Source: Candidatus Latescibacterota bacterium (GTDB lineage Bacteria > Latescibacterota > UBA2968 > UBA8231). Taken from it: a stretch of 64,000 nucleotides of DNA. This document shows positions 13,031 through 30,272 of the stretch, piece after piece; position 1 is the first letter of the stretch, and each line of letters begins with the position of its first letter. The position numbers were made by a program, and so were the translations under genes. Location of the stretch: positions 2,598,936-2,662,935 of the forward strand of contig CBDCNM010000002.1 in the NCBI GenBank assembly GCA_965219385.1. The letters run 5' to 3'. Under the pieces are notes generated by a model. The model did no database searches and was not told where the DNA came from. It saw only the letters and a list, made by a program, of their open reading frames with translations.

Positions 13031-13061
13031 CCCTTGGGTCACCGCCGAGCTGAAAATCCAG
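13031..13061 (+). repeat. 31-bp direct repeat, left boundary of the CRISPR-Cas cassette
   Basis: CCCTTGGGTCACCGCCGAGCTGAAAATCCAG, identical to 30242-30272. Confidence 0.95.
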
Positions 13062-13071
13062 GCGACAACGG

Positions 13072-14427
13072 GCTTCAATGAGGCCGGGGCGTTTCCACCC
13101 CGGAAATCTCGCCGAAGATCGGCAAGAAAGGCCGGATTCAAACGCTTCAATGAGGCCGGGGCGTTTCCACCCCGGAAATCTGGACGATGCAGGGCCTCGC
13201 CCTGGTCGGTGGTATCGCTTCAATGAGGCCGGGGCGTTTCCACCCCGGAAATTTTCTAATCGTGTTCCGTATGTTTGGTATCAGAAATTGCTTCAATGAG
13301 GCCGGGGCGTTTCCACCCCGGAAATCGCGCCGGCCACTACTACGCGGTCACCTGGGCCGAGAAGCTTCAATGAGGCCGGGGCGTTTCCACCCCGGAAATA
13401 CTGATTGTTGAGGTAGAGACAGTCGTGGACATCCTGCTTCAATGAGGCCGGGGCGTTTCCACCCCGGAAATTTCGATGCGCCGTAAGACTGGAAAAAGAG
13501 CGGGCGGTAACGGCTTCAATGAGGCCGGGGCGTTTCCACCCCGGAAATCGCACCATCGACCCGCGCAATGCCCTGGCCTGGTTCCGCGCTTCAATGAGGC
13601 CGGGGCGTTTCCACCCCGGAAATCCGTTCGTCCGTAGGCTTGGTGTCGGCGTAGGTCCGGTAGCTTCAATGAGGCCGGGGCGTTTCCACCCCGGAAATCA
13701 TGTACGGCCCGTCCGGACGGCCACGGTCTACCAGCGCTTCAATGAGGCCGGGGCGTTTCCACCCCGGAAATCCGTTCGTCCGTAGGCTTGGTGTCGGCGT
13801 AGGTCCGGTAGCTTCAATGAGGCCGGGGCGTTTCCACCCCGGAAATCCCGTCGGCGTCAGCGTGTCTATATGCTCCTCGCAGGCTTCAATGAGGCCGGGG
13901 CGTTTCCACCCCGGAAATCCGCGGGCTCGGTGCCGGTCGTCGATCATGATATGATTGCTTCAATGAGGCCGGGGCGTTTCCACCCCGGAAATAAGGCCGC
14001 CTGCCTTGCCGGAAGATCGGTTCAATCCGCTTCAATGAGGCCGGGGCGTTTCCACCCCGGAAATTACACCGATCCCCGAACACCGGCGCGTGCAGTGGCC
14101 GCTTCAATGAGGCCGGGGCGTTTCCACCCCGGAAATAGTCCCGCCCGATGCCAGATAATAATCTGGCGCACAGGGCTTCAATGAGGCCGGGGCGTTTCCA
14201 CCCCGGAAATGAGGTCGAGGGGTCCGCTTCATGTTGCTGGCTGATAGCTTCAATGAGGCCGGGGCGTTTCCACCCCGGAAATGCGCGTCGAGGCCGCTCC
14301 CTCCCCCGCGAAAGCGGTCGCTTCAATGAGGCCGGGGCGTTTCCACCCCGGAAATGACAGATAGGCGGGTAATATTTTCGCTGAAGTGCGCGCTTCAATG
14401 AGGCCGGGGCGTTTCCACCCCGGAAAT
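13072..14427 (-). CRISPR. CRISPR array: 19 identical 36-bp repeats and 18 spacers of 36-41 bp
   Basis: Minus-strand repeat ATTTCCGGGGTGGAAACGCCCCGGCCTCATTGAAGC with hairpin CCGGGG...CCCCGG and a 3' ATTGAAGC handle typical of I-G; leader is on the cas2 side. Confidence 0.99.
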
Positions 14428-14636: not shown

Positions 14637-14930
14637 CTAGACAATTGTGGCCTGTCGGGTCGGCACCTCATACGTTTTGCCCAGGCTTTCTACCAGGGGA
14701 TCGACCCGGTCGGCAGGCCCCAAGTCCACGATCAGGATATGATCCTCCGCCAACTCGATCAAGTCTTCCAAACGCGCGGTCATCTCGGCGCGCCGCCGAG
14801 CCGTCAGCCGACACTGGAAAACCGACAACTGCAGCCAGTATCCATAGCCTTTCATCACCTTAAACACGCGCCGCCAGCGCTTGGGCTCGGCTATGTCGTA
14901 CGCAACGATGTAGAGACGCTCGTTGGCCAT
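14637..14930 (-). CDS. cas2: CRISPR-associated endonuclease Cas2
   Basis: YIVAYDI, LQLSVFQC; 97 aa; adjacent to the array. Confidence 0.97.
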   Translation of the reverse strand: MANERLYIVAYDIAEPKRWRRVFKVMKGYGYWLQLSVFQCRLTARRRAEMTARLEDLIELAEDHILIVDLGPADRVDPLVESLGKTYEVPTRQATIV

Positions 14931-14935
14931 ATCGG

Positions 14936-16648
14936 CTACCGGGGAAGATAATGCGGATAGGTGACGATCTCGCCCTGCAGATGCCGTGCGAGCAACCTAA
15001 CCTGCACCTCTATCAGCCGCCGCATGGAGACGCGGTAGCCGAAAAGCGGATGGGTGGTTTCCTGGTCCATACGGCGCTCAAACGCAGCGATGAAGGCCTT
15101 GCGGCCGCCGGGCTTTAGCGAGCAGGCCGGTCCATTGAACACAAAGTCGCCCGGTTTGACCTCACCGTTGTTGATGGCCTGGATTACACAGGAATCCGCG
15201 ACGATGGGCCGGAACGGCTCCATCAGGTCGAGGGCCAGTGCCGGGCGGCCGTGGCGCGGGCGATGGTAGAGGCCCATGTAGGGGTCCAGCCCGGTCGCCG
15301 AGATCGTCGTCGTGAAAACCCGCGTCAACAAGGCGTAGGCCAGCGACAGCATCGCATTCACCGGGTCGGTGGGCGGGCGCCGATTGCGCTTTGAGAAGGA
15401 AAACGCGGCCATGTCCTCTTTCGCACCCGCGGCGAGCATATTCTCAAAGCAAGCGAAATAGATTGCCGCGGCCTCGCCCTCAATGCCCAGCAGTTGACGG
15501 TCGTCTCGGGCGCGGGGCACCCGCTGGACGATTCGCTTTAATCGGACCAGGGCTTCGTTTTTGGCCTCCGCGTCCCCATTGACGCGCCAGTTGCGGCGCA
15601 ACATCGTGCGCGAGTTGCGCACCTTTGCCGCCACCAAGTCGCGCGCAAATGCGAGGCTGCTAGGCTCGTCAAAGGCGGCCCGGTACTGCGCCTGGCGCAC
15701 GGCCACGTTGCCATTGCCGGTCCCCACGGTGTGGCCGAGAAACCAGCCGCCCGTGGAGAACCACGACACCGGAATCTCGGCGCGCATCAGCGCGTGCAGG
15801 GCCGGCGTGGTCACCGAGACCGGGCCGAACAGGGCAACCTGGGAAACGTCGATCATGGGCACTTCCACAGATTCTTCTTCGGTCTCCACCACCAGGCGCT
15901 CGCCGCTTTTGCGCAACCGCGCCCCCGGCGTTTGTACGTAGAGCGGCAGAGCCGGATCGTCGGACGGGTTCAGCGGGCGCGGCGGATACCCCTTGCGGAA
16001 CAGGTTGGTCTCGTCCGGCAGGCAGATTCCAGCAAGCGAACAGCGCGGGCACTTGGGGCTATTCTCGAGCGGCGGTGGCCGACGACCATTGGCCGCGGCG
16101 GAACGCAGGCCCGCAATCGCCTCCAGAGTCCGGGCGCGGAGTTCATCGTCGAGAACGACCTGCACCCGCTCGCGTGAGCCGGCGTACCAAAGCACGCCCT
16201 GCTCGACCTTGTAGCCATTGTCCTCAAGAATCATGGCCTGGGTGCAGATTTGGACGCGCTCGGGTTCGTAGGCGCCGGCGGCGACGTGGGGCCGCTTGCC
16301 TTTTTTGAAGTCCACGGGCATTGCGGTTCCCTCGTCGGCCTCCACCACATCCATCTTGGCGATAACGCCGAGACGCTCCGAGGAAAGGGTGACGGCCCGG
16401 GCGCGGGCCATATCCTCGCCGAGCTCGTCGGGCGCGGGCAAGCGGCCCCCACCTTCATCAACCCGGACATGGGCGCGCCGCCCCTCGGCCGTGTCCCCGC
16501 TCTCGGCCCACTCGCCTTCCACCCATTCCAAATAGGCCAGCCGGGGGCAATAAACCCATTCGTTGACCATGCGGGCCGGGGCCAGCGGCGTGTTGGCGTC
16601 GGCTGGCGGTGGGGGCAGGGCGAGGATGAGTTGGCGGTCGTGGGTCAT
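14936..16648 (-). CDS. cas1: Cas4-Cas1 fusion (type I-G)
   Basis: YCPR...DFKKG...KCPRCSLAGIC Cas4 domain; LLGIEGEAA, RNRRPPTDPVNAMLS, LALDLMEPFRP Cas1 domain. Confidence 0.97.
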   Translation of the reverse strand: MTHDRQLILALPPPPADANTPLAPARMVNEWVYCPRLAYLEWVEGEWAESGDTAEGRRAHVRVDEGGGRLPAPDELGEDMARARAVTLSSERLGVIAKMDVVEADEGTAMPVDFKKGKRPHVAAGAYEPERVQICTQAMILEDNGYKVEQGVLWYAGSRERVQVVLDDELRARTLEAIAGLRSAAANGRRPPPLENSPKCPRCSLAGICLPDETNLFRKGYPPRPLNPSDDPALPLYVQTPGARLRKSGERLVVETEEESVEVPMIDVSQVALFGPVSVTTPALHALMRAEIPVSWFSTGGWFLGHTVGTGNGNVAVRQAQYRAAFDEPSSLAFARDLVAAKVRNSRTMLRRNWRVNGDAEAKNEALVRLKRIVQRVPRARDDRQLLGIEGEAAAIYFACFENMLAAGAKEDMAAFSFSKRNRRPPTDPVNAMLSLAYALLTRVFTTTISATGLDPYMGLYHRPRHGRPALALDLMEPFRPIVADSCVIQAINNGEVKPGDFVFNGPACSLKPGGRKAFIAAFERRMDQETTHPLFGYRVSMRRLIEVQVRLLARHLQGEIVTYPHYLPR

Positions 16649-16658
16649 ATGATGGGGC

Positions 16659-17921
16659 CTAAAACCCGTTCTCTATAATGGTTAAAGGCAGCTTCAGTTC
16701 CAGTTGCGGCCAACGTGGGATATCCGAGTCGCAAAGGCCGAGGGCTGAGAGTGCTGATTTCCAAAACGACTCGAAAGACTCTTTCTTGACGGGCAGCAAG
16801 CCGTGAGCCAGCAGCGAGTTGTTCCGTTTTTGTAAATGGTCCTTGAGGCAGTCGTAAGTATGAGCTTGTTCACTAAGCGCCTCGTCTTCGCTGAACTCCA
16901 AAATCTGGAACAGATTCTGGATACCAAGCTTATATGGGCCATCGTCAGGTTGGCCAAGTTTCTCGATAACTTCTTCACGACGAACAGCCGGAAAACACTC
17001 TATCGAGACCTTGCCCAACTCAGCGCCGAACGCTTGCTTTACCAGTTGCTGACTGCGCAACTCGACGGCGCGGTAAAGCCTACCGACGGCGTCGTCATAG
17101 CGCGACTGTTTTGCACATCTGTCGGCGTTGGCAACGAGTTTAAGTAGAGTTTCTCGCCCCGCAGTCTGATCGTTGTGCTTCACCTGATCCCCGACAGCTT
17201 TCCAATGCTCGTGCAGAGATACTAGCCTTTGGTAGAGCGGATAGTCGAGCGAGAGTTCCAGTTTCTGGTGCCAACGGAGAAATTCACTGTGGGCTCTCTT
17301 AAAGTCGAACCGATCGGCCAGCCCAAGAGCCTTGGCGAGCCCGGCGAACGCCTCCAAGCGCGCGCGCTGCGACTCGTCACACTTTCGTGCGGCATCCTCG
17401 AGAACCGCGGCGGCGGAATCGGCGTAGAAACCCTCCAACAATCCGTTTGCACGATCAAGCTCTCGCACGGCATACGTAACCCACGGATTTTGGCATCTGA
17501 CGACAAGTTCGGAGCCGGTAACGACTGTACCGAGATTGTTGGAGTCGCGGCTGGAGCCGCCTACATAAGTAAAATTTTTGAACCGCTCAACAGCGGCAAG
17601 CATGAGTGCAGCCGACATGGCCTTGGTACCACCAGTGATGTCTATATACACCTCCTCCGGGTCCAGCTTGCGCTCGCTGAGCCACCTCTCTATATCGGTC
17701 CGAATCTCCTGATAGCAGATCCCGATATCTTGGTGATCTGAGATCTCCAAATACCCGTATTGAGGAACGTAACCCAGCCCGGGCAATATCTCATCTTCCA
17801 CCTGAGACCTTGAAGCGCCGGAGACAACAAATAGCGCGTAAGGGGGTCTCCCTTCACCCAGTACTTTCCGCACCGGCTCGGGTGAACCTCCAACACTGGC
17901 GATCATGCCGCGTAGCCTCAT
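16659..17921 (-). CDS. CARF-HEPN effector (TIGR02710/Csm6-like), putative cOA-activated RNase
   Basis: SVGGSPEP and DITGGTKAMS CARF motifs; RYDDAVGRLYRAVEL; C-terminal RNNSLLAH (R-X6-H). Confidence 0.85.
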   Translation of the reverse strand: MRLRGMIASVGGSPEPVRKVLGEGRPPYALFVVSGASRSQVEDEILPGLGYVPQYGYLEISDHQDIGICYQEIRTDIERWLSERKLDPEEVYIDITGGTKAMSAALMLAAVERFKNFTYVGGSSRDSNNLGTVVTGSELVVRCQNPWVTYAVRELDRANGLLEGFYADSAAAVLEDAARKCDESQRARLEAFAGLAKALGLADRFDFKRAHSEFLRWHQKLELSLDYPLYQRLVSLHEHWKAVGDQVKHNDQTAGRETLLKLVANADRCAKQSRYDDAVGRLYRAVELRSQQLVKQAFGAELGKVSIECFPAVRREEVIEKLGQPDDGPYKLGIQNLFQILEFSEDEALSEQAHTYDCLKDHLQKRNNSLLAHGLLPVKKESFESFWKSALSALGLCDSDIPRWPQLELKLPLTIIENGF

Positions 17922-18868
17922 CGGTCGGTTTCCTCTCGCCAGATCATGGGGACAGCGAGTCCGAAGGTCGCTTGGACCGGGTGGATACCACGTGCTGCAA
18001 GCGATTCACGAGCGCTCTTGCTTAGCAGGCGTTCCGGCCCAATAGGGGCACCGTAGAACGGTTTCGGGGGGTGTTTCGTGCGGAAGCAGGCACCGGCCGC
18101 CAGCATGACCTGTGGACGTTTGAACACGGCGCTAGAGTGGAACTCCGGAGCCAGTTTTCCGTACTTGACGAAGAGTCGCCAGAAACCTTCCACCGGGTCA
18201 GTGGCCGCCGGCTGGAACGTTGAGAGGGATGTGAATCCGTCGGCTCCATGAACATTATCCAGTTCGGGACTAGGGGTTGGATCGCCGTCTAACTCGAAGC
18301 CGCCGTGGCCCACCGAGGCATCGGCACCATATCCGGTCTGCCCCAGTATTTCCAAGGCTTCAAGCAAAATTTGCAGGCCGCCATCGGCAGCGCGAGCAAA
18401 AATGGTCAAGTCGCCTTCGGACTTGCTGAGCTTTGAAAACGGCACTTCAAAGAGTTCACCACCAGCACCTGTGGTATTGGAAACGCGGGAGATGGTGTTG
18501 CGCAACCGCACGCGATCGTGGATAGAGATACCGGGATCTTCTAGATTGGGTTTCTTCCCCTCCTGGACTCGACAAAAATCGGCCATAGTCATCCAGCGAT
18601 ATTTCTTGACGTTCTTGCGCTTCTCTGGAGGCCAATCCCACCACAACGGCAGGCTAGCCGGTGCTGGCAGTGAATCGCCGGGAAAGGCGTCGGAGATGAC
18701 AAACAGCGGCTCCTGAGCGACCCACGGATCCAGGAAATCCCTCTGGAGCGCGTCATGACCACGAGAACGCGCCCATGCACACGCCATCGCGCCAAGTAGC
18801 GAATCCGCCTGCCAAGGCGTGGTCCAAACCCCGAGGGGATTCAACCTCAGGCGGAACAATGTGTCCAT
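17918..18868 (-). CDS. csm4: Type III Cas5-group RAMP, Csm4-like
   Basis: ADSLLGA, ISDAFP, glycine-rich GYGADASVGHGGF loop. Confidence 0.85.
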   Translation of the reverse strand: MDTLFRLRLNPLGVWTTPWQADSLLGAMACAWARSRGHDALQRDFLDPWVAQEPLFVISDAFPGDSLPAPASLPLWWDWPPEKRKNVKKYRWMTMADFCRVQEGKKPNLEDPGISIHDRVRLRNTISRVSNTTGAGGELFEVPFSKLSKSEGDLTIFARAADGGLQILLEALEILGQTGYGADASVGHGGFELDGDPTPSPELDNVHGADGFTSLSTFQPAATDPVEGFWRLFVKYGKLAPEFHSSAVFKRPQVMLAAGACFRTKHPPKPFYGAPIGPERLLSKSARESLAARGIHPVQATFGLAVPMIWREETDR

Positions 18869-19512
18869 GGTTTACCATCCAATTTGAAATCGTTGAAGCT
18901 CACCGCTCCCGAACCCCGGCTCGTCCCGCCCCCCAGGCCCGTCATCTGCACTAGATTCAAGCCGTCGGCGACGACTGCTTGGAAAGCTTCACTGTCTTGA
19001 TGCGAGTTGCCGTTGTGGTCTGTGTACGAGAATTGTCTGTCGAGATCGAAGACTTGCAGAACGATCTGCATCTTGAACTCCGTACCCTCGATGACCCGCT
19101 CGTTTGACCGCGGATGTTCGGCCGCGCCAGTTTGGCGGTTTATGACGTTTTCCGTCTTGTTCTCAATGCGACCGCCCTTGAGGAGCCGGCCGTCACGGAC
19201 GATGATGCGAGAAGGGCCAAGATTGCTCCGGGGGTTCATGTGCGCTCCAAACAATCGACAGACGGGACACTCTCCACATCCACAGGGCCTGTCTTTTCTC
19301 TCTCCACCGAATTTGCCCAGCTTTTTCTCTAACTCGCCTCGCATCTTCCCCTTGAGCGACGAGCCTGGAATGTAGGGATCGCGAGTTTCCGGGTTCTTGA
19401 TCACCGGATTATCGGAGCCGCCAATTGCCAACTCGTCTTGCGAACCCCCGATATGAAGGCCGCTTTCGCAACGAGCGGTAAAGGTAATGGTGTGAATGGC
19501 AGTTCTTTGCAT
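18847..19512 (-). CDS. csm3: Type III Cas7-group RAMP Csm3
   Basis: GLHIGG, IGGSDNPV (catalytic Asp position retained), PYIPGSSLKGKMR, GLGGGTSRGSG. Confidence 0.95.
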   Translation of the reverse strand: MQRTAIHTITFTARCESGLHIGGSQDELAIGGSDNPVIKNPETRDPYIPGSSLKGKMRGELEKKLGKFGGERKDRPCGCGECPVCRLFGAHMNPRSNLGPSRIIVRDGRLLKGGRIENKTENVINRQTGAAEHPRSNERVIEGTEFKMQIVLQVFDLDRQFSYTDHNGNSHQDSEAFQAVVADGLNLVQMTGLGGGTSRGSGAVSFNDFKLDGKPWTHCSA

Positions 19513-19513
19513 G

Positions 19514-20044
19514 TCAGGAATCCTTCCTCATGTATTTGGCCCCAAAGCCGACCAGCGCCTCGAAATGTGGTAGAAAGCCATCCAGAAAGGCCCTTTCCGG
19601 CTCTTTCGCGGAGCCTACCCGTTTCACGTTGTCATCGATGAAATCTTGAAATTCTCCCGGAATTTTGTGGGCCGCGACGGCGTTCTGAGCATGGTAACAG
19701 AGTGCCTCGAAGCCAGCAGCTACTTGATGCCAGCTTTCGTTGTCAACTTTCAATTGACGTTCAAGCTCGCGGCAGTGATTGAAGAAACGGCGCATCTGGC
19801 CAGTAGTCAGCTTGGGGTTAGACCGATATGCAAGCTGTTGGGCCAAAGGATCGACGTTTTTCTTGGAGACGAAGTCGGGTTGAAGATAGCTTCGCCCTTG
19901 GTTATCAGTCTCGAAATACGAGCCTGGAAATTTTGGCAAGGCTTCCCTTGGCGGCCTGCTACGATCACCGCCACCGCGATCTCGCCGTTCTCGTTGTTTA
20001 GGTTGAAATCCCGCCTTTTCCATAGCATCCTCCATGCTATTCAT
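19514..20044 (-). CDS. csm2: Type III small subunit Csm2 (Cas11)
   Basis: LTTGQMRRFF and HFEALVGF motifs; lies between cas10 and csm3. Confidence 0.88.
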   Translation of the reverse strand: MNSMEDAMEKAGFQPKQRERRDRGGGDRSRPPREALPKFPGSYFETDNQGRSYLQPDFVSKKNVDPLAQQLAYRSNPKLTTGQMRRFFNHCRELERQLKVDNESWHQVAAGFEALCYHAQNAVAAHKIPGEFQDFIDDNVKRVGSAKEPERAFLDGFLPHFEALVGFGAKYMRKDS

Positions 20045-21506
20045 CGCGTCTTTCCTTTCTCGGTCGTGTTGCCAACAAGGCATAGCGGAGACTTGCCGCC
20101 AATTCGTTTACGCGCTGTTCATCGCGCTCTAGATATTCGAGCACATGGTTCGCCCAGCGATGAAAGTCGGTGTGGCGCCGGGGCACGTTGCGCTCGATTT
20201 GATAAGCCCAACGAGCCGCTCGCAGAGGCTTGCCGCTCTCCGCGAGACGCAGCAAACGATGCAGCAGCGAGCGAGGAGCCACGTCGGCTTCAACCCAGTC
20301 TGCCAGCCGCTTACCATCGCCTACCACAGATTCATGTTGCTTCCAACTCCAATCCGTCCCGAGGGCGGCGCACCGATTCTTGCCCGGACGTTGCTTGGCC
20401 GACTCCAAGAGTTCCTCCGCACGCTCGACTGCGTGACGAATCGGTATGCGGTAAGGGGTCAGAGCGATTCCAGCGCTTAAGGTTAGCGGTGAATACTCTT
20501 GGGCCGGACCCACCTCGAACTCTCTTGCCAGAGACCCGGCAAAGTCGAGCACGATATTCCAGGGGCCAACCAGCAGCAGATCATCCCCGCCGGCATACAG
20601 CGTGTAGATTAAAGGCCATGACTCTGCCAACAATTCCTGAATTGTCTGCCCGAAGAACTCATGCAAACTATAACTGAAAGACCGCAGCCGGTTGTACGAT
20701 CGGTCTTCGCCGGCAACTTGTCCGACCCGGACACCCATGTCGTCCACATCGGCTTTCAGCACGGCCAGACGACGGTCGTTGCGGGCTTGCTCGGCGATCT
20801 CCTCGAATGTCAGCGGTTCGCCGGAATCGGAATGGCGCGGTATCCAGCGGCCCACTCGGAAGGATTCCGGCGTCCGGCTTTCTAATGCCTCAAAGGCGAC
20901 GCCCAGCGCTCGCGCCGAGCCGCCGCCGGGGCGCATCCATTTCCACCGTGTCAGCTTTTCACCGAGCTTGCGGGCCTCCAGACAGCTTCTACAATGTAGA
21001 ACCTCCTCACCTTCGTCCTGTACGCTCTGCTGCCCCGGAGATTGGCGGCAGACTTCACACGGCTCGTCAAGTGGAGATTGGCTCCAACTATCCGGGTTCC
21101 AACCGCCCCTGCTTTGCAGCATGGAAACGCCTATACGGCGCTTCTGAAGTTCCAGACGAGCGCGGGCGGCGAGTGGCGTCTCACCCCAGCCCAGCGAGAA
21201 CTGGACTTCTCCGCCGGATTCACCCCACAGCTTGCGTTGCAAGCCGGAACGAATCTCCTCAAGGCGAACGGGGTCGGTATCAGGTGGAATCCGCATCAGG
21301 AAACCACCTCCGCCCCGGACCAGAACATCATCGTCGGCAATACGAAATCGTTCCTTTATCGTCCAAAGTGCGGCATGTTCGAAGAGTTCGAGCAGGAACG
21401 ACCGGGCTCGCAAGCGCTTCGCCTGCGCCTTGCCCGCGCTCTTCACACCCAGCACATAACGCTGGATTCCAGAAAAATCACCAGCCAAATAGACTGCTTT
21501 GCTCAT
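20037..21506 (-). CDS. cas10: Compact Cas10 lacking the HD nuclease domain
   Basis: Starts at Palm1 GDFSGIQ, then LRARSF, CxxC/CxxC, KADVDDMG, YAGGDDLL; 489 aa. Confidence 0.93.
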   Translation of the reverse strand: MSKAVYLAGDFSGIQRYVLGVKSAGKAQAKRLRARSFLLELFEHAALWTIKERFRIADDDVLVRGGGGFLMRIPPDTDPVRLEEIRSGLQRKLWGESGGEVQFSLGWGETPLAARARLELQKRRIGVSMLQSRGGWNPDSWSQSPLDEPCEVCRQSPGQQSVQDEGEEVLHCRSCLEARKLGEKLTRWKWMRPGGGSARALGVAFEALESRTPESFRVGRWIPRHSDSGEPLTFEEIAEQARNDRRLAVLKADVDDMGVRVGQVAGEDRSYNRLRSFSYSLHEFFGQTIQELLAESWPLIYTLYAGGDDLLLVGPWNIVLDFAGSLAREFEVGPAQEYSPLTLSAGIALTPYRIPIRHAVERAEELLESAKQRPGKNRCAALGTDWSWKQHESVVGDGKRLADWVEADVAPRSLLHRLLRLAESGKPLRAARWAYQIERNVPRRHTDFHRWANHVLEYLERDEQRVNELAASLRYALLATRPRKERRDE

Positions 21507-21575
21507 AGATTAGGGTATCCAACCGGAATGAACGGTGATGTCAGAAGTTCAACATGCGCCTTAAACCCACTGCGT

Positions 21576-21983
21576 TTATGGAATGACTTCAAATCCCACC
21601 TGTCGGAAGTGATGGTCCAACGTCAATGCCCGGCAAATTCGCAGTTCTCGCATGAGAACAAAGCTACAGCAGTCGGTAAAGGAGAATTCCTTATCCCGAT
21701 AGCCGAAGAAGAGCGACCGTGCCCGTTCTCTTCGCGGTTCGTCAATGGACTCGATCCGCAGTCGAGCCGAGCCGTCGATTTGCAGCCACCAAGCTTCAGC
21801 AGCTTTAAGACCAAGGCGGAACCGGATGGTGGTCAGAGTCTCGTCGATCACATAGTCGGTCGTCGTCAGTATGCCTCCGGACGACAGCCATTGATCCCGA
21901 GCTTCCCGTACAGCCGAACCTGCGGTATCGCGGCTATCCGCAGCCGCAACCCATGCGGCCGTATCCACGAACATTTGCTTCAC
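21576..21983 (-). CDS. vapC: PIN-domain toxin (VapC family)
   Basis: FVDT, VIDE, SFTDCCSF, TLDHHF. Confidence 0.92.
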   Translation of the reverse strand: MKQMFVDTAAWVAAADSRDTAGSAVREARDQWLSSGGILTTTDYVIDETLTTIRFRLGLKAAEAWWLQIDGSARLRIESIDEPRRERARSLFFGYRDKEFSFTDCCSFVLMRELRICRALTLDHHFRQVGFEVIP

Positions 21984-22225
21984 CTGTACAGCACTTCGTC
22001 ATGCCGTGCGGCAGCGTCACCCGATTCAGATGCCCCAACGGCTGGAGCCTGGTACAGCGAATCCGATTCCAGTGGCGCGCTTTCGATAGGTGGACTGCCA
22101 ACCGGGACGATGTCGAAAGCCGGACGACTGCGGTAAAGAACGGTAAACCGCTCCCCGTGTCTCACTTTCTCGACGACATCCTGCAGTCGCTCTCGGAGCT
22201 GTTTGGCGCTGATAAATTCTGGCAT
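21980..22225 (-). CDS. Phd/YefM-family antitoxin
   Basis: ISAKQLRERL..VVEKV..GERFTVL...RP; overlaps the toxin start by 4 nt. Confidence 0.85.
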   Translation of the reverse strand: MPEFISAKQLRERLQDVVEKVRHGERFTVLYRSRPAFDIVPVGSPPIESAPLESDSLYQAPAVGASESGDAAARHDEVLYR

Positions 22226-22280: not shown

Positions 22281-23909
22281 TCACCTGAACTCTACTGGAT
22301 GTGGACGTGCGAACATTCCAAGGCCAAAATGACAGGCATAGCCAAGAGCTAAAGGACCCTCGATTGGTTCAGGAAAACTCAGGCGCAGCAAGGCCCCTTG
22401 CGCGTCGGGTTGTTTCTCTCGCCCCCGCGAACGGAACCGGTGAAAATGGACTGGTCGTCGGGAAACACCATGGACCTCGATGTCGGGCAAGCGCTCGACT
22501 TGAACAGGCCCAATACTCGATCCAGACGCGATCTCTCTACGCTTCCAAAGCCGATGTACCTCGCCCTCATAGCCAGCCTTTTTCAAATGACCGGCCGCCA
22601 AAAAGGGCGTTACACTGACCCATTCAGCGGAGCGGCCAAATAGCCGCGATGTGTCCGCAAAGTCCTCCGGGCGGCCAAAGCCCTCTAGGGCCAGCCGCCA
22701 TTCTTGGCGGCCGGTTTCTTCGTTCCCTTCTTCTCCGCTGGGATCTTTTTTGCCAACCCACAATCGGGTCAAGCGATCCAGCTTCTCGCGCACTTCGGCG
22801 TCGAAACCTTCCTTTGCGTAAACCGATATGTGGTCAATCCAGCCATCGCCATCGGCGTCTTCGGGCAGCCAAAAAGCGTGAGAATGCCGACCATCTCGCA
22901 AAGGTTGGTCGTCGGGGCCACGGCCCGAGATCACCGACGGCGCTTTGGGTTTCTTGTTCTCCCAACCGAACTTGGAAAGCGCGGCCAGCCGCATGAGTTC
23001 GCCGATCTTAACTGCGTCCTCAATGCGAGGTTGGGGACGGCCAGCTAGGAGATAGCGGGCTACGGTGAAACGACTGCGGTCATCAATCGCTTCATGTCTC
23101 TGTACGGGCCGCGGAACGGGCGACAGTGGTGAACGTGTGTAAACGATCTCGCGTGCGGCCGGCGGCCGGTTCCAGCGGTATTTCTGGTAATCGGCCGTAT
23201 CGAGTGTCAAGGCGTCGGACAAGCGTTCGGGCAGGGTCGGCCCGAACGCCTTGTTGTGCGCTCTTTCGAGTGCTTTGGGCGTGGGGGGCCTCTTGCCGGA
23301 AGCAGCGGCGCGGGAACGCTCTGCATCGTCGGCTTCCTCTAACAGGCGCGTGCGCTCCACCGCATAGTCCCTGGCACTGCGCGGCGCGAGCACCCGCACC
23401 GCCTCCCCATCAGTGGCCCCATTTTGGCCGACCGGGCGGCAGTTTGCCTCTCCTCCCCAGTCAGTTGTCGCTTCGCAGTCAACCCAACTCTCGGCACGGC
23501 CCAAGTAGCCGATCCCCTCGGCGAGATCGGCCGCTAATTCAAAAAGTTCGGCGTCCAAGTCGAGTTCCGGCCAAACCGTTACGATCTTCTCGCCTTCGGG
23601 AAGGTGTGCGAAGGCGTCAAAGACGAGCGTCGTCTTCAGCGGCGCGGGCATGTAGTGTTGGGTGTGTGCGTGGATTGCGCCTTCGGGCAGGCGATAGATC
23701 GGCGCATCTTCCGCGAGCGCGTCCATTAGCCGGGCGAGCGCGTCCTCGGACCAGCGCACCCGGTCTCCTTTGCGCCAATAGCTAGCAACGAGCGCACGGA
23801 GAATGCGCCACGGCTCCGGCGGCCAAGCGACATCAGCTTCGTTGACATGGCGTCCCCACGGCGTAGCGTGATAGCGGCCCGCGGGGAAGCTGAAAGTAAG
23901 CGCGAACAT
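22281..23909 (-). CDS. csb2: Type I-G Csb2 (Cas5/Cas6 fusion)
   Basis: FPAGRYHATPWG...WPPEPWRILRAL, YLGRAES, GPLALGYACHFGLGMF. Confidence 0.95.
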   Translation of the reverse strand: MFALTFSFPAGRYHATPWGRHVNEADVAWPPEPWRILRALVASYWRKGDRVRWSEDALARLMDALAEDAPIYRLPEGAIHAHTQHYMPAPLKTTLVFDAFAHLPEGEKIVTVWPELDLDAELFELAADLAEGIGYLGRAESWVDCEATTDWGGEANCRPVGQNGATDGEAVRVLAPRSARDYAVERTRLLEEADDAERSRAAASGKRPPTPKALERAHNKAFGPTLPERLSDALTLDTADYQKYRWNRPPAAREIVYTRSPLSPVPRPVQRHEAIDDRSRFTVARYLLAGRPQPRIEDAVKIGELMRLAALSKFGWENKKPKAPSVISGRGPDDQPLRDGRHSHAFWLPEDADGDGWIDHISVYAKEGFDAEVREKLDRLTRLWVGKKDPSGEEGNEETGRQEWRLALEGFGRPEDFADTSRLFGRSAEWVSVTPFLAAGHLKKAGYEGEVHRLWKRREIASGSSIGPVQVERLPDIEVHGVSRRPVHFHRFRSRGREKQPDAQGALLRLSFPEPIEGPLALGYACHFGLGMFARPHPVEFR

Positions 23910-23916
23910 TCGAGAC

Positions 23917-27172
<3,256 letters not shown>

Positions 27173-27183
<11 letters not shown>

Positions 27184-29656
27184 ATCCATCCTCCTGTTCT
27201 TCTTTTGCCGATGCCCGCCAATCCGCAATCCGCACCAGTGCCTCCAGCCACGCGAGCCGGAAAGGGCCATACTGGGAAAGCAAATTGCGTGTACGCTCGG
27301 CCCAACTCGCGCCGGTTTCTGGATGCTCCCCCAACTCCATCACGGATAGTGTGAGCGGCCCCCCTGCCCAAGTTTCTCCACCACCTAAGTCAACCGGCGG
27401 GACCACATCGCCCTCCCATATGCCGCGGACAAAACGGGATTTATCCTCTCCTGTTGCCGGACGTTCGGCGGGAAGCGGACGCAAATTCAGGCGCACCTTG
27501 CCGTGATGGGCGGCGATCAGGTACGCGACCAGATCAGCCTCCCGTGCCCAGTCCGCTTGTGAGAGGAACGCGAGCGCAGACGCCAGTTCGTGCCGTAAGT
27601 ACGCCCGCCCCTTCATACGGTCGTACTTCGGGGCCTTGGCCAACAGACCCTCTGGCCGTGAATCAGACTCAGGGTCATTGGCAACCATTCGCGCCTGAAA
27701 CTCAGCGTGTGCCTTGCCGAGGTCGTGCCAGTATGCAGCCTGGACAATCGCGGCTTTCCAGTCTCCACAAACGCCGAGGCCATCGCACAGTAGTCCAGCT
27801 TTAAAAGCCACGTTGTCCAGATGCTTCACCAGTCCCACGAATCCCCTCTGTCTGCTGCTGTCGGGATCGGCGTCATTCGACTCGTCTGCTGCTGACAACT
27901 CCGCTTCTAGCTCCACAGGCTCGACCGCTGCTTTTATGTCCTGATCAAACCCCGTCTCCGGCGCGTACCCTCCGGTACTTGCAGAAACCAACAAGACCAA
28001 ACCCGGCCAAGGTTCCTCCCGGAACGCGGTCCAAGCCTTCATGTTATATCTCGCCTGCGGGTCTATGCGGAACACCCGCTGCCCTTCCTTTTGCCGGACA
28101 TTCTTGAGCCAGTCTCGGGCTTGTCTTATCGGAACTGCACAAAGCTCGTCCCGCGTCGGCGCGAGCTGATCCTCTAGTCCAGCCGACAAATCGCGCCAGA
28201 AGACGCGAATATCAGTATCCTCGGCATCGCGGATATAGGGAGCAATATCGACATCAAAGCCAGTCAAATCTGGATCAGTGTCGTATAGATCTATCATATC
28301 CCTAGATCGTATCACCCGCTGATGGTCGCAGTCATCGGGTGCAGGCGGCGCGAGATTGGACGGTCGAGCGTCCGTCAACGCGGCAATCCGCTCGCGTCCG
28401 ATTTTGAGCTCGTCAATCTCATAAGGAGCGGCCAGCAAATCATCGAGACCGCCACCGATGAGATCAATCCAGCGAATCGTCCCGCCGCCGGAATCGTTCA
28501 ATTCTCCGTAGCGGTTCACCCGACCAAACCGCTGGATGAGGGACGAGGCGGGCGCGAGTTCGGTGAGCATGACCGCCGCCGAAAGATCGACACCCGCTTC
28601 AATCGCCTGCGTCGCAACGACGATCAAGTCTTTCGCCTCCCCAGGCTGCGGCAGCTTATCCATCTGCGATTTGCGATCTTTGGGCCGAAAGCGCGAGTGG
28701 ATGAGGGCGAGGCGAGCGGGCGAATCCTTTTTCTTGAGTGCCTTATGCACAGCTTGAGCTCGGACGACGGTATTGACTACCACGAGCGTCGTGCGGTTTT
28801 CTTGATGCAGCCGCAGAGTTTCTTCCGCCAACGCCGTGGCGTAAGCATCCAGACCGGCCTTCTTGGCACTCACCGGCGCAACGGACGCCTGCTGAATCGG
28901 CTTGGGTGCGTCAATCAGCTTGAGGACATGCGGCGACTGCCCGTCTTCAGGGAAATCGTCTGGAGCGCACCAAACCTTCGGACTTTGCTTGAAATCAACC
29001 GTGCCTAGCCAGTCTGGATGAAGGGTTGCCGACACCCAAAGACTGCGCGAGGCAATCTCCGTCCCCAATTTGCGACGAAAGCCTTCAAGTTGTGTGGAGG
29101 TTGCCAATCCCGAGCCCATGAGTTGCACCTCGTCAAAGACCCACTGCGCGTCGTTGTGCAGCAACGCGAAGTCCACCGGCCAGCGGAAGCGGCTCATGGC
29201 GTACCCCCGCATCAGAGCGCGACTGAGTAGCATGTCTTGGGTCCCAATCAGGATGGCTGGATGTTCGGGTCTTTCAAACCAGCGCGGCTCGTCAATGCCA
29301 CCCAAGCGCGGCTTGTCAATGCCACCCATAAGAACATGGACTCCGGTTTGGGGATCCGGGAGGCGCGATTTCCAGTCCGTATTTGCCTCTCCTAGCCGTC
29401 GCAGCCATTCTCTTACATTCCGCTCCGTCTGGTCAACGAGCGTGCGCATGGGCAGGCAATAGACGAGGCGACGCGGCAGTGCATACTCAGCGGCGATGTG
29501 CTGCCAAGCCCAGCCGAGTACTACCGCGGCGGTCTTGCCGAGGCCGGTCGGAGCAATAAGCGCGTCCGGCCAAGCTCGCTTTGCTAGCGCCTGCTGATAG
29601 GCGAAAGGGCTGATATCTTTGCCGAATGCTGTGGAGAAGAATTGATCGAAGGTCAT
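27173..29656 (-). CDS. cas3: Type I-G Cas3 (N-terminal helicase, C-terminal HD nuclease)
   Basis: APTGLGKT, DEVQ, SAT, TQAIEAGVD, QRFGRVNR, HDLGKA, HELASA, HHG. Confidence 0.96.
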
Positions 29657-30241: not shown

Positions 30242-30272
30242 CCCTTGGGTCACCGCCGAGCTGAAAATCCAG
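30242..30272 (+). repeat. 31-bp direct repeat, right boundary of the CRISPR-Cas cassette
   Basis: Identical to 13031-13061. Confidence 0.95.

Follow-up and report, generated by a model that had tools for sequence, protein, structure and literature searches.

Csm5 is regarded as one of the core subunits of type III-A CRISPR systems, and it recruits host nucleases for crRNA maturation. As a second Cas7, it caps the crRNA 3′ end of the five-subunit Csm complex (PMC11417356, PMC6468305); in Staphylococcus epidermidis, crRNAs fail to mature when csm5 is knocked out, and a point mutation in Csm5 abolishes anti-plasmid immunity (PMC5389561). A recognisable HD domain is found in only 65% of III-A systems (PMC11229360). 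The reductive types III-G and III-H (PMC12669027), like III-F (PMC11229360), keep the HD domain and have lost the cyclase and the CARF effectors, and III-A2, also a reduced III-A, lacks Cas11, is linked to NucC, and has a Cas10 predicted to make cyclic oligoadenylate (cOA) and a catalytic Cas7 Asp (PMC12669027). Among the type I systems, pre-crRNA cutting has been shown for the Csb2 protein of type I-G in Thioalkalivibrio sulfidiphilus (10.1101/2022.08.08.503147).

How does the present locus compare with these systems? It lies in a 64,000-nucleotide stretch of a Candidatus Latescibacterota genome (the window), with all features given here on the reverse strand, and has the operon and 36-nt repeat of T. 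sulfidiphilus with a III-A-derived cassette added. Its type I-G components are all present: cas3g, cas8g and csb1 for interference (23917..29656; profile matches), the Cas5-Cas6 fusion csb2 (22281..23945; TIGR02165, 169 bits), the cas4g-cas1g fusion with cas2 for adaptation (14637..16648; NF049935, 782.8 bits, cut-off 560), and an array of 19 repeats and 18 spacers with a hairpin repeat (13072..14427; from repeat geometry). The split of cas8g into two ORFs is probably an assembly error, since contigs from all four sequencing runs carry one extra base at 26533. The type III cassette sits between csb2 and cas4/1 and has no cas1/2 and no cas6 of its own, the latter a point that the original prediction had missed. 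A Phd-type antitoxin and PIN toxin pair (21576..22225; profile matches) separates csb2 from cas10.

The cassette keeps the order cas10-csm2-csm3-csm4, the Csm1 fold, the GGDD motif and the Csm3 Asp of the III-A systems of Thermus thermophilus HB8, S. epidermidis, Lactococcus lactis and Serratia ATCC 39006, but differs from them in the deletion of the HD region (about 240 residues), the lack of csm5, cas6 and cas1/2, and the I-G repeat. All four products exceed the NCBIfam type III-A cut-offs. Cas10 (csm1; 20037..21506; 489 aa, Palm1-Zn finger-Palm2-D4) belongs to the Csm1 family, scoring 256.6 bits against TIGR02578 (cut-off 170) versus 51.1 against TIGR02577 (cut-off 79.4). Csm2, the III-A signature small subunit (Cas11; TIGR01870, 37.3 bits, cut-off 30.6; PF03750), has a low-complexity N-terminal tail; its longest ORF, read from the first ATG at 20083, has 189 aa, but the N-termini of aligned relatives favour M14 at 20044, so that csm2 probably spans 19514..20044 (176 aa) and overlaps the cas10 stop. 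Csm3, the only Cas7 of the cassette (18847..19512; 221 aa; TIGR02582, 165 bits), starts 1 nt downstream of the csm2 end and overlaps csm4 (Cas5; 17918..18868; 316 aa; TIGR01903, 82.5 bits, cut-off 55) by 22 nt. The gene for a CARF-HEPN ribonuclease of the TIGR02710 family (16659..17921) in turn starts at 17921, overlapping csm4 by 4 nt and therefore leaving no space for csm5. The coordinates thus agree with the original prediction of four overlapping or abutting ORFs without a csm5 gap. Its total of about 1200 aa holds for the gene payload, which is 1202 aa (1215 if csm2 is counted from its first ATG) where Csm1-5 of T. thermophilus have 1855 aa; it is not the size of the complex, and it leaves out the needed Cas6 function, here probably supplied by Csb2.

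The cassette does not fall into the described reductive lineages. Csm2 is present, which sets it apart from III-A2, defined by having no identifiable Cas11 (PMC12669027); what is missing from the lineage here is instead Csm5 and HD. To III-F, III-G and III-H it is rather a mirror image, with GGDD intact, HD absent and a CARF effector present. It contains no Csx10, Csx19 or III-D Cas7, and the type III-D locus of this genome is a separate one.

The predicted absence of HD from Cas10 is borne out. The protein starts at Palm1 (G9-DFSGIQ-15) and has the Zn-finger cysteines C150, C153, C172 and C175, D253-VDDMG-258 and G306-GDD-309. An in-frame stop two codons 5′ of the ATG excludes a missed upstream start or N-terminal extension. 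Position 6 of the profile aligns to residues 235-249 in the solved Csm1 chains; the entire HD region is therefore missing. The structural model (pLDDT 88.8) matches Csm1 chains at TM 0.65-0.78 among the top 40 and has only Csm1 among its best Foldseek matches; as modelled, the fold is Csm1 minus HD. The L. lactis Csm1 reference residues D253, S277, D520, S546, Y572 and D576/577 (PMC11417356) correspond to D10, S36, D253, S278, Y304 and D308/309, all of them conserved without exception in 58 Cas10 sequences, although D10 is retained in only 37 of 57 sequences of a wider clade alignment. Judged by sequence, the ATP- and metal-binding residues are kept and the enzyme is catalytically intact. The catalytic Asp of Csm3 is likewise kept, as D34 (23 of 23; aligned to position 34 of PDB 9zs2_E), which predicts RNA cleavage. 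Together with the type I-G Cas3, which offers DNA cutting in the same operon, this speaks against the 'signalling-only' sensor that had been proposed.

Is the short Cas10 merely a decaying remnant of an ordinary III-A system, recently cut, for example, by the toxin-antitoxin insertion? The pair does occupy the expected HD-coding position, and the cas10 or csm3 frame is broken in three related loci (L018, L023, L024). However, the same start and gene set recur at identities between 90% and about 32%, and most of these loci lack the pair, which is optional (3 of 24 GTDB loci); loci without it have the same cas10 start, directly after csb2, and the HD loss is thus not attributed to it. A search for the empty site of a putative insertion at a 31-nt flanking repeat gave five related loci with the left-hand gene but neither the right-hand gene nor the repeat, and no such joint among the joints listed. 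The nearest homologs are not full-length: all 120 best homologs have at most 541 aa in a search that extended to 856 aa, and the 61 best-ranked of 150 Cas10 representatives (50% clustering) have at most 579 aa. As envisaged in the original prediction, phylogeny recovers a clade of similarly short proteins (487-580 aa; monophyly 0.992 and 0.998 in two Cas10 FastTrees) under purifying selection (dN/dS 0.17-0.23 for cas10, with none of 23 comparisons reaching 1), with invariant active-site columns. A recent deletion is therefore extremely unlikely, and the proposal of a stable, unclassified variant gains from the depth of the clade. Its genomes are mostly MAGs, some of them incomplete, and several loci are near-duplicates. 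Labelling HD domains by regular expression was rough, with P0188 (540 aa) called HD-bearing and several proteins of 714-796 aa HD-less, and groups were therefore assigned from protein length and the point where the alignment begins. On viral contigs, 25 pattern matches yielded no gene for a relative; plasmid protein searches returned no member of the clade, only distant III-A systems.

A short Cas10 as such is not new. Cas10s of 486-516 aa accompanied by csm5 occur in cultured bacteria: the plasmid-encoded Csm1 proteins of Fulvitalea axinellae (486 aa) and Arcobacter cloacae (516 aa) are of the same size and HD-less, but csm5 and cas6 are kept, and in Csm3+Csm4 trees both systems fall outside the csm5-less clade, their HD losses being probably independent. 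Of the two departures named in the original prediction, both are real, but HD absence is common in III-A; the distinctive loss is that of csm5, which is common to full-length relatives. None of the 33 clade loci that extend past csm4 into the next gene has csm5; among scorable loci with a long Cas10, 47 of 69 gave a csm5 match to the same profile. Natural loss of csm5 was not found in the literature searched; the figures and data files of Makarova 2025 could show the clade. A main survey of type III loci used a 500-aa length filter (PMC11229360), which a 489-aa Cas10 would fail, and this may partly explain why the lineage has gone unremarked.

From the csm5 dependence in S. epidermidis it follows that some compensating change must exist in the csm5-less clade; we looked for one and found none. 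A Csm5-like cap could be supplied in trans or be too diverged for detection, for example as a Cas7 of the III-D locus, which in this genome carries Csx10/Csx19 and Cas7-family genes; L023 has a second, diverged csm3 copy, and MAGs can miss genes. Yet csm5 above cut-off is absent from the genome studied and from 26 of 27 others (21 of 22 and five of five relatives' genomes), the one exception belonging to a separate locus with a 799-aa Cas10. Searched with a profile made from 22 Csm5 sequences, the genome studied gave csm3 itself (19 bits) and no other match, and the clade loci compared share no conserved unknown gene in the cassette. We consider such a cap very unlikely.

The Csm3+Csm4 tree nests the HD-less clade (100/100) in a larger csm5-less clade (100/100), the other members of which have a full-length Cas10; thus, csm5 was probably lost first. 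The Cas10 tree does not recover this order (deeper node 0.704); in it, the sister group of the clade (0.984) consists of two short Cas10s from loci with csm5, L150 and L166. In the scenario of the Csm3+Csm4 tree, csm5 would have been lost in a lineage with a full-length Cas10 and its own cas6, and HD would have been deleted later, in a branch that moved onto type I-G crRNA.

What could supply the crRNA? The type III cassette appears to borrow it from the neighbouring I-G system, processed by Csb2. The 19 array repeats are identical, each of 36 nt with an 8-bp hairpin, 4 nt and an 8-nt handle, matching the geometry of the T. sulfidiphilus Csb2 substrate (10.1101/2022.08.08.503147); the 18 spacers measure 36-41 nt, one is present twice, and none gives a self-match of note in the genome. 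In Csb2, to which no solved structure was matched by sequence, the C-terminal His of the H-x-GLG motif is invariant (12 of 12). Of 33 clade loci, 23 show csb2 or at least its Cas6 half, and 18 show the same repeat type. Unlike T. sulfidiphilus I-G, several relatives have only the Cas6 half of Csb2, adjoining cas10, some without an I-G Cas7; G012 combines this half with cas4/1, cas2 and a 58-repeat array, and its genome gave no match to Csb1, the I-G Cas7. Use of I-G is not universal in the clade: in L093 a cas6 gene and a repeat resembling those of type III are present, L023 adjoins type I-E, and six loci have no array or Cas6 nearby, the genome of one of these (G016) giving no Csb2 match.

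A possible, though rather doubtful, answer to the missing cap is an I-G/III-A chimera in which the Cas6 domain of Csb2, staying on the 3′ hairpin, replaces Csm5 at the end of the Csm3 filament; complex prediction of Csm3 with the L012 Cas6 half of Csb2, run without RNA, scored 0.00 twice, which counts neither for nor against it. If it existed, the crRNA would be type I-like and untrimmed, with maturation independent of host nucleases, the loci with only the Cas6 half would represent a minimal RNA sensor that works autonomously, made up of that half and the four genes and served by I-G adaptation, and the chimera would deserve to be named as a separate variant or subtype.

The CARF-HEPN protein, for which no solved structure was matched by sequence, is homologous to T. 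thermophilus TTHB144 (28% identity over 426 columns, E 2e-32) and keeps K100 and R366..H373, and with them the counterparts of TTHB144 K94 and H368 (PMC6599890). In the clade loci where the gene after csm4 can be seen, it encodes a CARF effector, except in L093, where such an effector lies upstream of cas10; the effector has been swapped among three families. The product of Cas10 is thus predicted to be cOA, most likely cA4. Minimal CRISPR polymerases can make a different messenger, or a constitutive or decoy signal. Could the short Cas10 do likewise, producing cA3, cA6 or SAM-AMP, or signalling without a target? In the near clade, Val or Ile stands at the Palm1 position of L. lactis Y304, a few homologs have a precomputed PF18182 (mCpol) match, and in two of the full-length relatives without csm5 the gene after csm4 encodes NucC. 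But the Y304-equivalent is non-aromatic in T. thermophilus Cas10 too, the linked effector resembles the cA4-activated TTHB144, the cA6-specific Thr is replaced by Leu274, and the Csm2/3/4 scaffold, which a stand-alone polymerase would not need, is complete. This makes another kind of signal unlikely.

Thus, we consider it likely that the four genes form a functional, long-established reduced III-A module, Cas10 without HD plus Csm2, Csm3 and Csm4, plugged into I-G loci. Cas4/1g-Cas2 would add spacers to an array presumably shared with type III, and the Cas6 domain of Csb2 would cut the pre-crRNA 4 nt past the hairpin, leaving an 8-nt AUUGAAGC handle that Csm may use. Csm4 and Cas10 would bind the handle and Csm3 polymerise along the 36-41-nt spacer without a Csm5 cap, the crRNA 3′ end being either held on the hairpin by Csb2 or trimmed uncapped by host nucleases. 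Target RNA binding would switch on the Palm domains to make cOA, probably cA4; by homology, this would activate the CARF-HEPN RNase and lead to growth arrest, and target cleavage by Csm3 would reset the system. The Csm complex itself would not cut DNA, a task for the host I-G Cas3.

The lineage represents a stable, widespread, stripped-down form of the Csm complex without the DNA-cutting domain and without a subunit that is present in every studied relative. Encoded in 3.6 kb, lacking a DNase and with about 35% less protein sequence than the Csm1-5 set of T. thermophilus, the predicted cOA-producing RNA sensor is a candidate tool for diagnostics and knockdown at the RNA level. With HD-bearing and HD-less branches in one csm5-less clade, the role of Csm5 and the ending of the filament become testable, and in the HD-less branch type III and type I-G would draw on a single crRNA supply, and the cutting of DNA would fall to Cas3.

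What kind of type III system does the cassette encode? As the original prediction had it, the four ORFs at window positions 17918-21506 on the minus strand are intact and abut or overlap, with csm4 overlapping the CARF gene by 4 nt, and Cas10/Csm1, Csm2, Csm3 and Csm4 each score over the curated type III-A cut-off in a profile search. The proposed lack of an HD domain in Cas10 is confirmed by alignment: the profile of 58 close homologs first aligns to solved Csm1 chains at their residue 235-249, which means that some 240 HD-holding residues are absent, and an overlooked upstream start is ruled out by an in-frame stop two codons before the cas10 start. The AlphaFold model of Cas10 (pLDDT 88.8, pTM 0.88) resembles Csm1 chains with a query TM-score of up to 0.78. 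The coding total of the cassette is 1202 aa (csm2 counted from its preferred start, M14), compared with 1855 aa for T. thermophilus Csm1-5. As the HD domain was not needed for interference in assays reported for M. tuberculosis (PMC6755085) and Serratia (PMC13737744), its loss is easily explained. At the N-terminus of csm2, several Dehalococcoidia loci (L009, L010, L019, L020, L021) have a CxxC...CxxC motif, and most others an 'M-x-D-A-M-x-K-A-G' helix and an Arg/Gly-rich tail.

Could the short Cas10 be a recent deletion, for instance at the insertion of the Phd/PIN toxin-antitoxin (TA) pair, with full-length proteins as its closest homologs? In a search admitting lengths up to 856 aa, the best 120 of 830 Cas10 homologs are all at most 541 aa long (53-90% identity), and among representatives at 50% identity the 61 best-ranked of 150 listed, fragments included, have at most 579 aa before the first full-length Cas10 follows. 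Only 3 of 24 GTDB loci carry the TA pair, so it did not cause the loss of HD. FastTree phylogenies of Cas10, which left out near-duplicates, fragments and one 1492-aa fusion, unite the short proteins in one clade (100 of 210 rows, 0.992; in a second tree, 65 of 161 rows, 0.998). The 24 loci, nearly all from MAGs, belong to Latescibacterota, Dehalococcoidia, Acidobacteriota groups, Opitutales, Rhodothermales, Binatia and Spirochaetia. In comparisons with five relatives, cas10 has a dN/dS of 0.17-0.23, and all 23 gene comparisons stay below 1, csm2 having the highest value (0.55). The short-Cas10 lineage is a clade, not an accident. At L018:11302-12728, some 1.4 kb of other DNA splits cas10 close to its 3' end. 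L023:10001-16496, a clade member adjoining type I-E, has a cas10 frameshifted in the assembly and a 527-aa frame that strings three csm2 domains together in tandem; of its two csm3 copies, the second has diverged. Two deep-branching loci with a short Cas10 each have a reverse transcriptase-Cas1 gene next to them (L083:1904-4645 and L093:11509-13486), which suggests that some clade members capture spacers from RNA.

Csm5 is absent as predicted, and not from the window alone. Local profiles were used to score 151 loci, made up of the window and 150 others. They found csm5 in none of the 33 short-clade loci with the gene after csm4 in view: 28 of these have it as a full-length ORF, in four it is broken or incomplete, and for L093 the call was made from 5.9 kb of DNA further downstream. 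Nine further short loci fell outside this scoring. The long-Cas10 loci divide into 47 with csm5, 22 without (four judged by room only) and 22 unscorable. In the window's own genome (two contigs, 94% complete), csm5 was detected neither by TIGR01899, whose control was positive in 5 of 14 known genomes, nor by a custom profile of 22 Csm5 sequences. Genome-wide, it exceeded the cut-off in one of 22 short-clade genomes, as part of a separate locus whose Cas10 has 799 aa (judging from coordinates, G011 and G151 are one genome with this separate locus), and in none of five additional ones. A maximum-likelihood tree of Csm3+Csm4 (62 of 98 usable loci, rooted on a csm5-bearing Bacillota locus) gathers all 35 csm5-less rows in one branch (100/100) and, nested within it, the 17 short-Cas10 rows (100/100), including L083, whose contig ends after csm4; a 98-row FastTree recovers both clades. 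Given these nested branches, a single loss of csm5 probably preceded that of HD. The Cas10 tree speaks against this order: its deeper node is weak (0.704), and two short, csm5-bearing Cas10s join the clade at 0.984, which we read as a probable long-branch artefact. The III-A loci with full-length Cas10 and no csm5 (L043, L056, L059, L062, L063, L065, L071, L072, L079, L088, L090, L092, L101, L105, L106, L153, L203, L205) group with the short systems as a single clade in the Csm3+Csm4 trees, and have CARF-HEPN, CARF-RelE, NucC, CARF-TM or cas6 after csm4.

The cassette sits within a type I-G operon, in the order cas3g, cas8g, csb1, csb2, Phd/PIN pair, cas10-csm2-csm3-csm4-CARF, cas4g/cas1g, cas2, CRISPR array; the array has 19 repeats of 36 nt, all identical, and its spacers 9 and 11 are the same 39-nt spacer (window 13587-13625 and 13735-13773). 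The split of cas8g at window 26533 is probably an assembly error, since it lies in a homopolymer and contigs of 4 of 4 runs, as well as two relatives, have one extra base there. A perfect 31-nt direct repeat (window 13031-13061 and 30242-30272) brackets the whole 17-kb CRISPR-cas locus and may be the mark of an insertion; its two copies, the only ones genome-wide, both lie between co-directional host genes, one of them 10 nt past the final repeat of the array, and related loci and related-strain contigs yielded no empty site. Contigs of related strains (2 of 4 runs) join 16674 to 21606, giving an I-G locus without the cassette; the sides of this joint are short and the organisms are relatives, but it is consistent with a plug-in module. 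The genome also carries a type I-C locus on contig C1 and a III-D-like locus (L025, G000:C2:1539600-1554700, and G000:C2:1555341-1559041) encoding a 531-aa Cas10, a TIGR03986 Cas7 with a cold-shock-like N-terminus, CARF-HEPN, a CRISPR primase-polymerase, an NE0113-family ring nuclease and cas6.

How would such a module obtain its crRNA? The window locus has no cas6 besides the Cas6 domain of Csb2, the type I-G Cas5-Cas6 fusion. This C-terminal domain is reported to cut 4 nt beyond the hairpin, leaving an 8-nt handle, to work in isolation and to stay on the 3' hairpin with a KD of 43 nM (10.1101/2022.08.08.503147); the geometry of the window repeat matches this substrate. Within the short clade, csb2 or its Cas6 half is in view in 23 of 33 loci, the window repeat type in 18, and no array in 11; the exceptions are L023 with type I-E, L093 with cas6 and a type III-like repeat, and the ambiguous L024 and L020. 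A stand-alone Cas6 half lies directly upstream of cas10 in six loci (L012, L022, L032, L034, L035, L151), and the five that were aligned keep a C-terminal His motif, by its position presumably the catalytic H503. As the one-chromosome assembly G012 combines a Cas6 half, cassette, cas4/1, cas2 and 58 repeats with no match to Csb1 in the genome, the module can apparently stand without an I-G Cascade. For the six orphan cassettes, a Csb2-like match exists elsewhere in five genomes and none was found in G016. The full-length csm5-less relatives have ordinary cas6 and weak-hairpin repeats, so the loss of csm5 did not need Csb2. Long Csb2 proteins of 786 and 822 aa (L002:3582-5942 and L008:7536-10004) show a weak phosphoribosyltransferase-like match mid-protein.

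Residues D10, S36, D253, S278, Y304 and D309 of the window Cas10 align with those named for L. lactis Csm1 (D253, S277, D520, S546, Y572, D577; PMC11417356), and none of them varies among the 58 close homologs. The GGDD motif, described as intact from the outset, is likewise invariant there and, together with D253, in a wider 57-row alignment, where D10 is found in 37 rows. Leu occupies the position of the cA6-specific Thr542, and Val that of L. lactis Tyr304, where T. thermophilus Cas10 is likewise non-aromatic. D34 of Csm3 is conserved in all 23 sequences and aligns to Ala34 of PDB 9zs2_E, presumably the structure from the paper in which D34A is the dead Csm3 mutant of Serratia (PMC13737744). 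The window CARF-HEPN shares 28% identity with a T. thermophilus protein recognized by T10/T11, K94 and H368 as TTHB144, a cA4-activated, self-limiting RNase (PMC6599890); it keeps K100 and H373, with G12/S13 in place of the two Thr. The slot after csm4 holds a CARF7/RelE-like protein in L001, L002, L003, L006, L019 and L020, and Csx1 + Csx16 in L016; such effector swapping is what one would expect if the cOA source works.

We consider it quite likely, judging from these sequences, that the system is an RNA-guided four-subunit Csm complex: Csb2 would cut its crRNA, Csm3 would cut target RNA, Cas10 would make cA4 for the CARF-HEPN RNase, and DNA cleavage would be left to Cas3. S. epidermidis Csm5 is reported to cap the crRNA 3' end and to recruit PNPase, and its knockout to yield 71-nt intermediates while a subcomplex still assembles (PMC5389561, PMC6468305, PMC9762709). 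That a retained Cas6 domain might cap the Csm filament is the boldest idea here, and less likely than not.

The lineage derives from type III-A and is predicted to work like it, but without two features of the canonical form, Csm5 and HD. Membership in III-A2 is rejected, as III-A2 lacks Cas11 whereas the cassette has csm2, and so is membership in III-G/H, where the cyclase has been lost but HD retained, the reverse of the window lineage (PMC12669027); two sections and the readable supplements of that paper contain no occurrence of 'Csm5'. Loss of HD and a small Cas10 are already known: a survey that left out Cas10 below 500 aa reports a recognisable HD in only 65% of III-A (PMC11229360). In Fulvitalea and Arcobacter, unlike the window lineage, a short Cas10 occurs together with csm5, and partial modules without csm2 and csm4 have been reported (PMC3396285). 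Searches of the open literature, including passages of PMC10910872, PMC6546367 and PMC3396285, turned up neither a natural csm5-less III-A lineage nor a III-A cassette on I-G crRNA; figures, data files and subscription papers lie outside this scope, and a prior mention is possible. The lineage is a real, old and widespread variant of type III-A, and a new one. What raises it above the routine is the lack of a core subunit throughout a large clade, together with a coupling to type I-G that is specific and can be tested.
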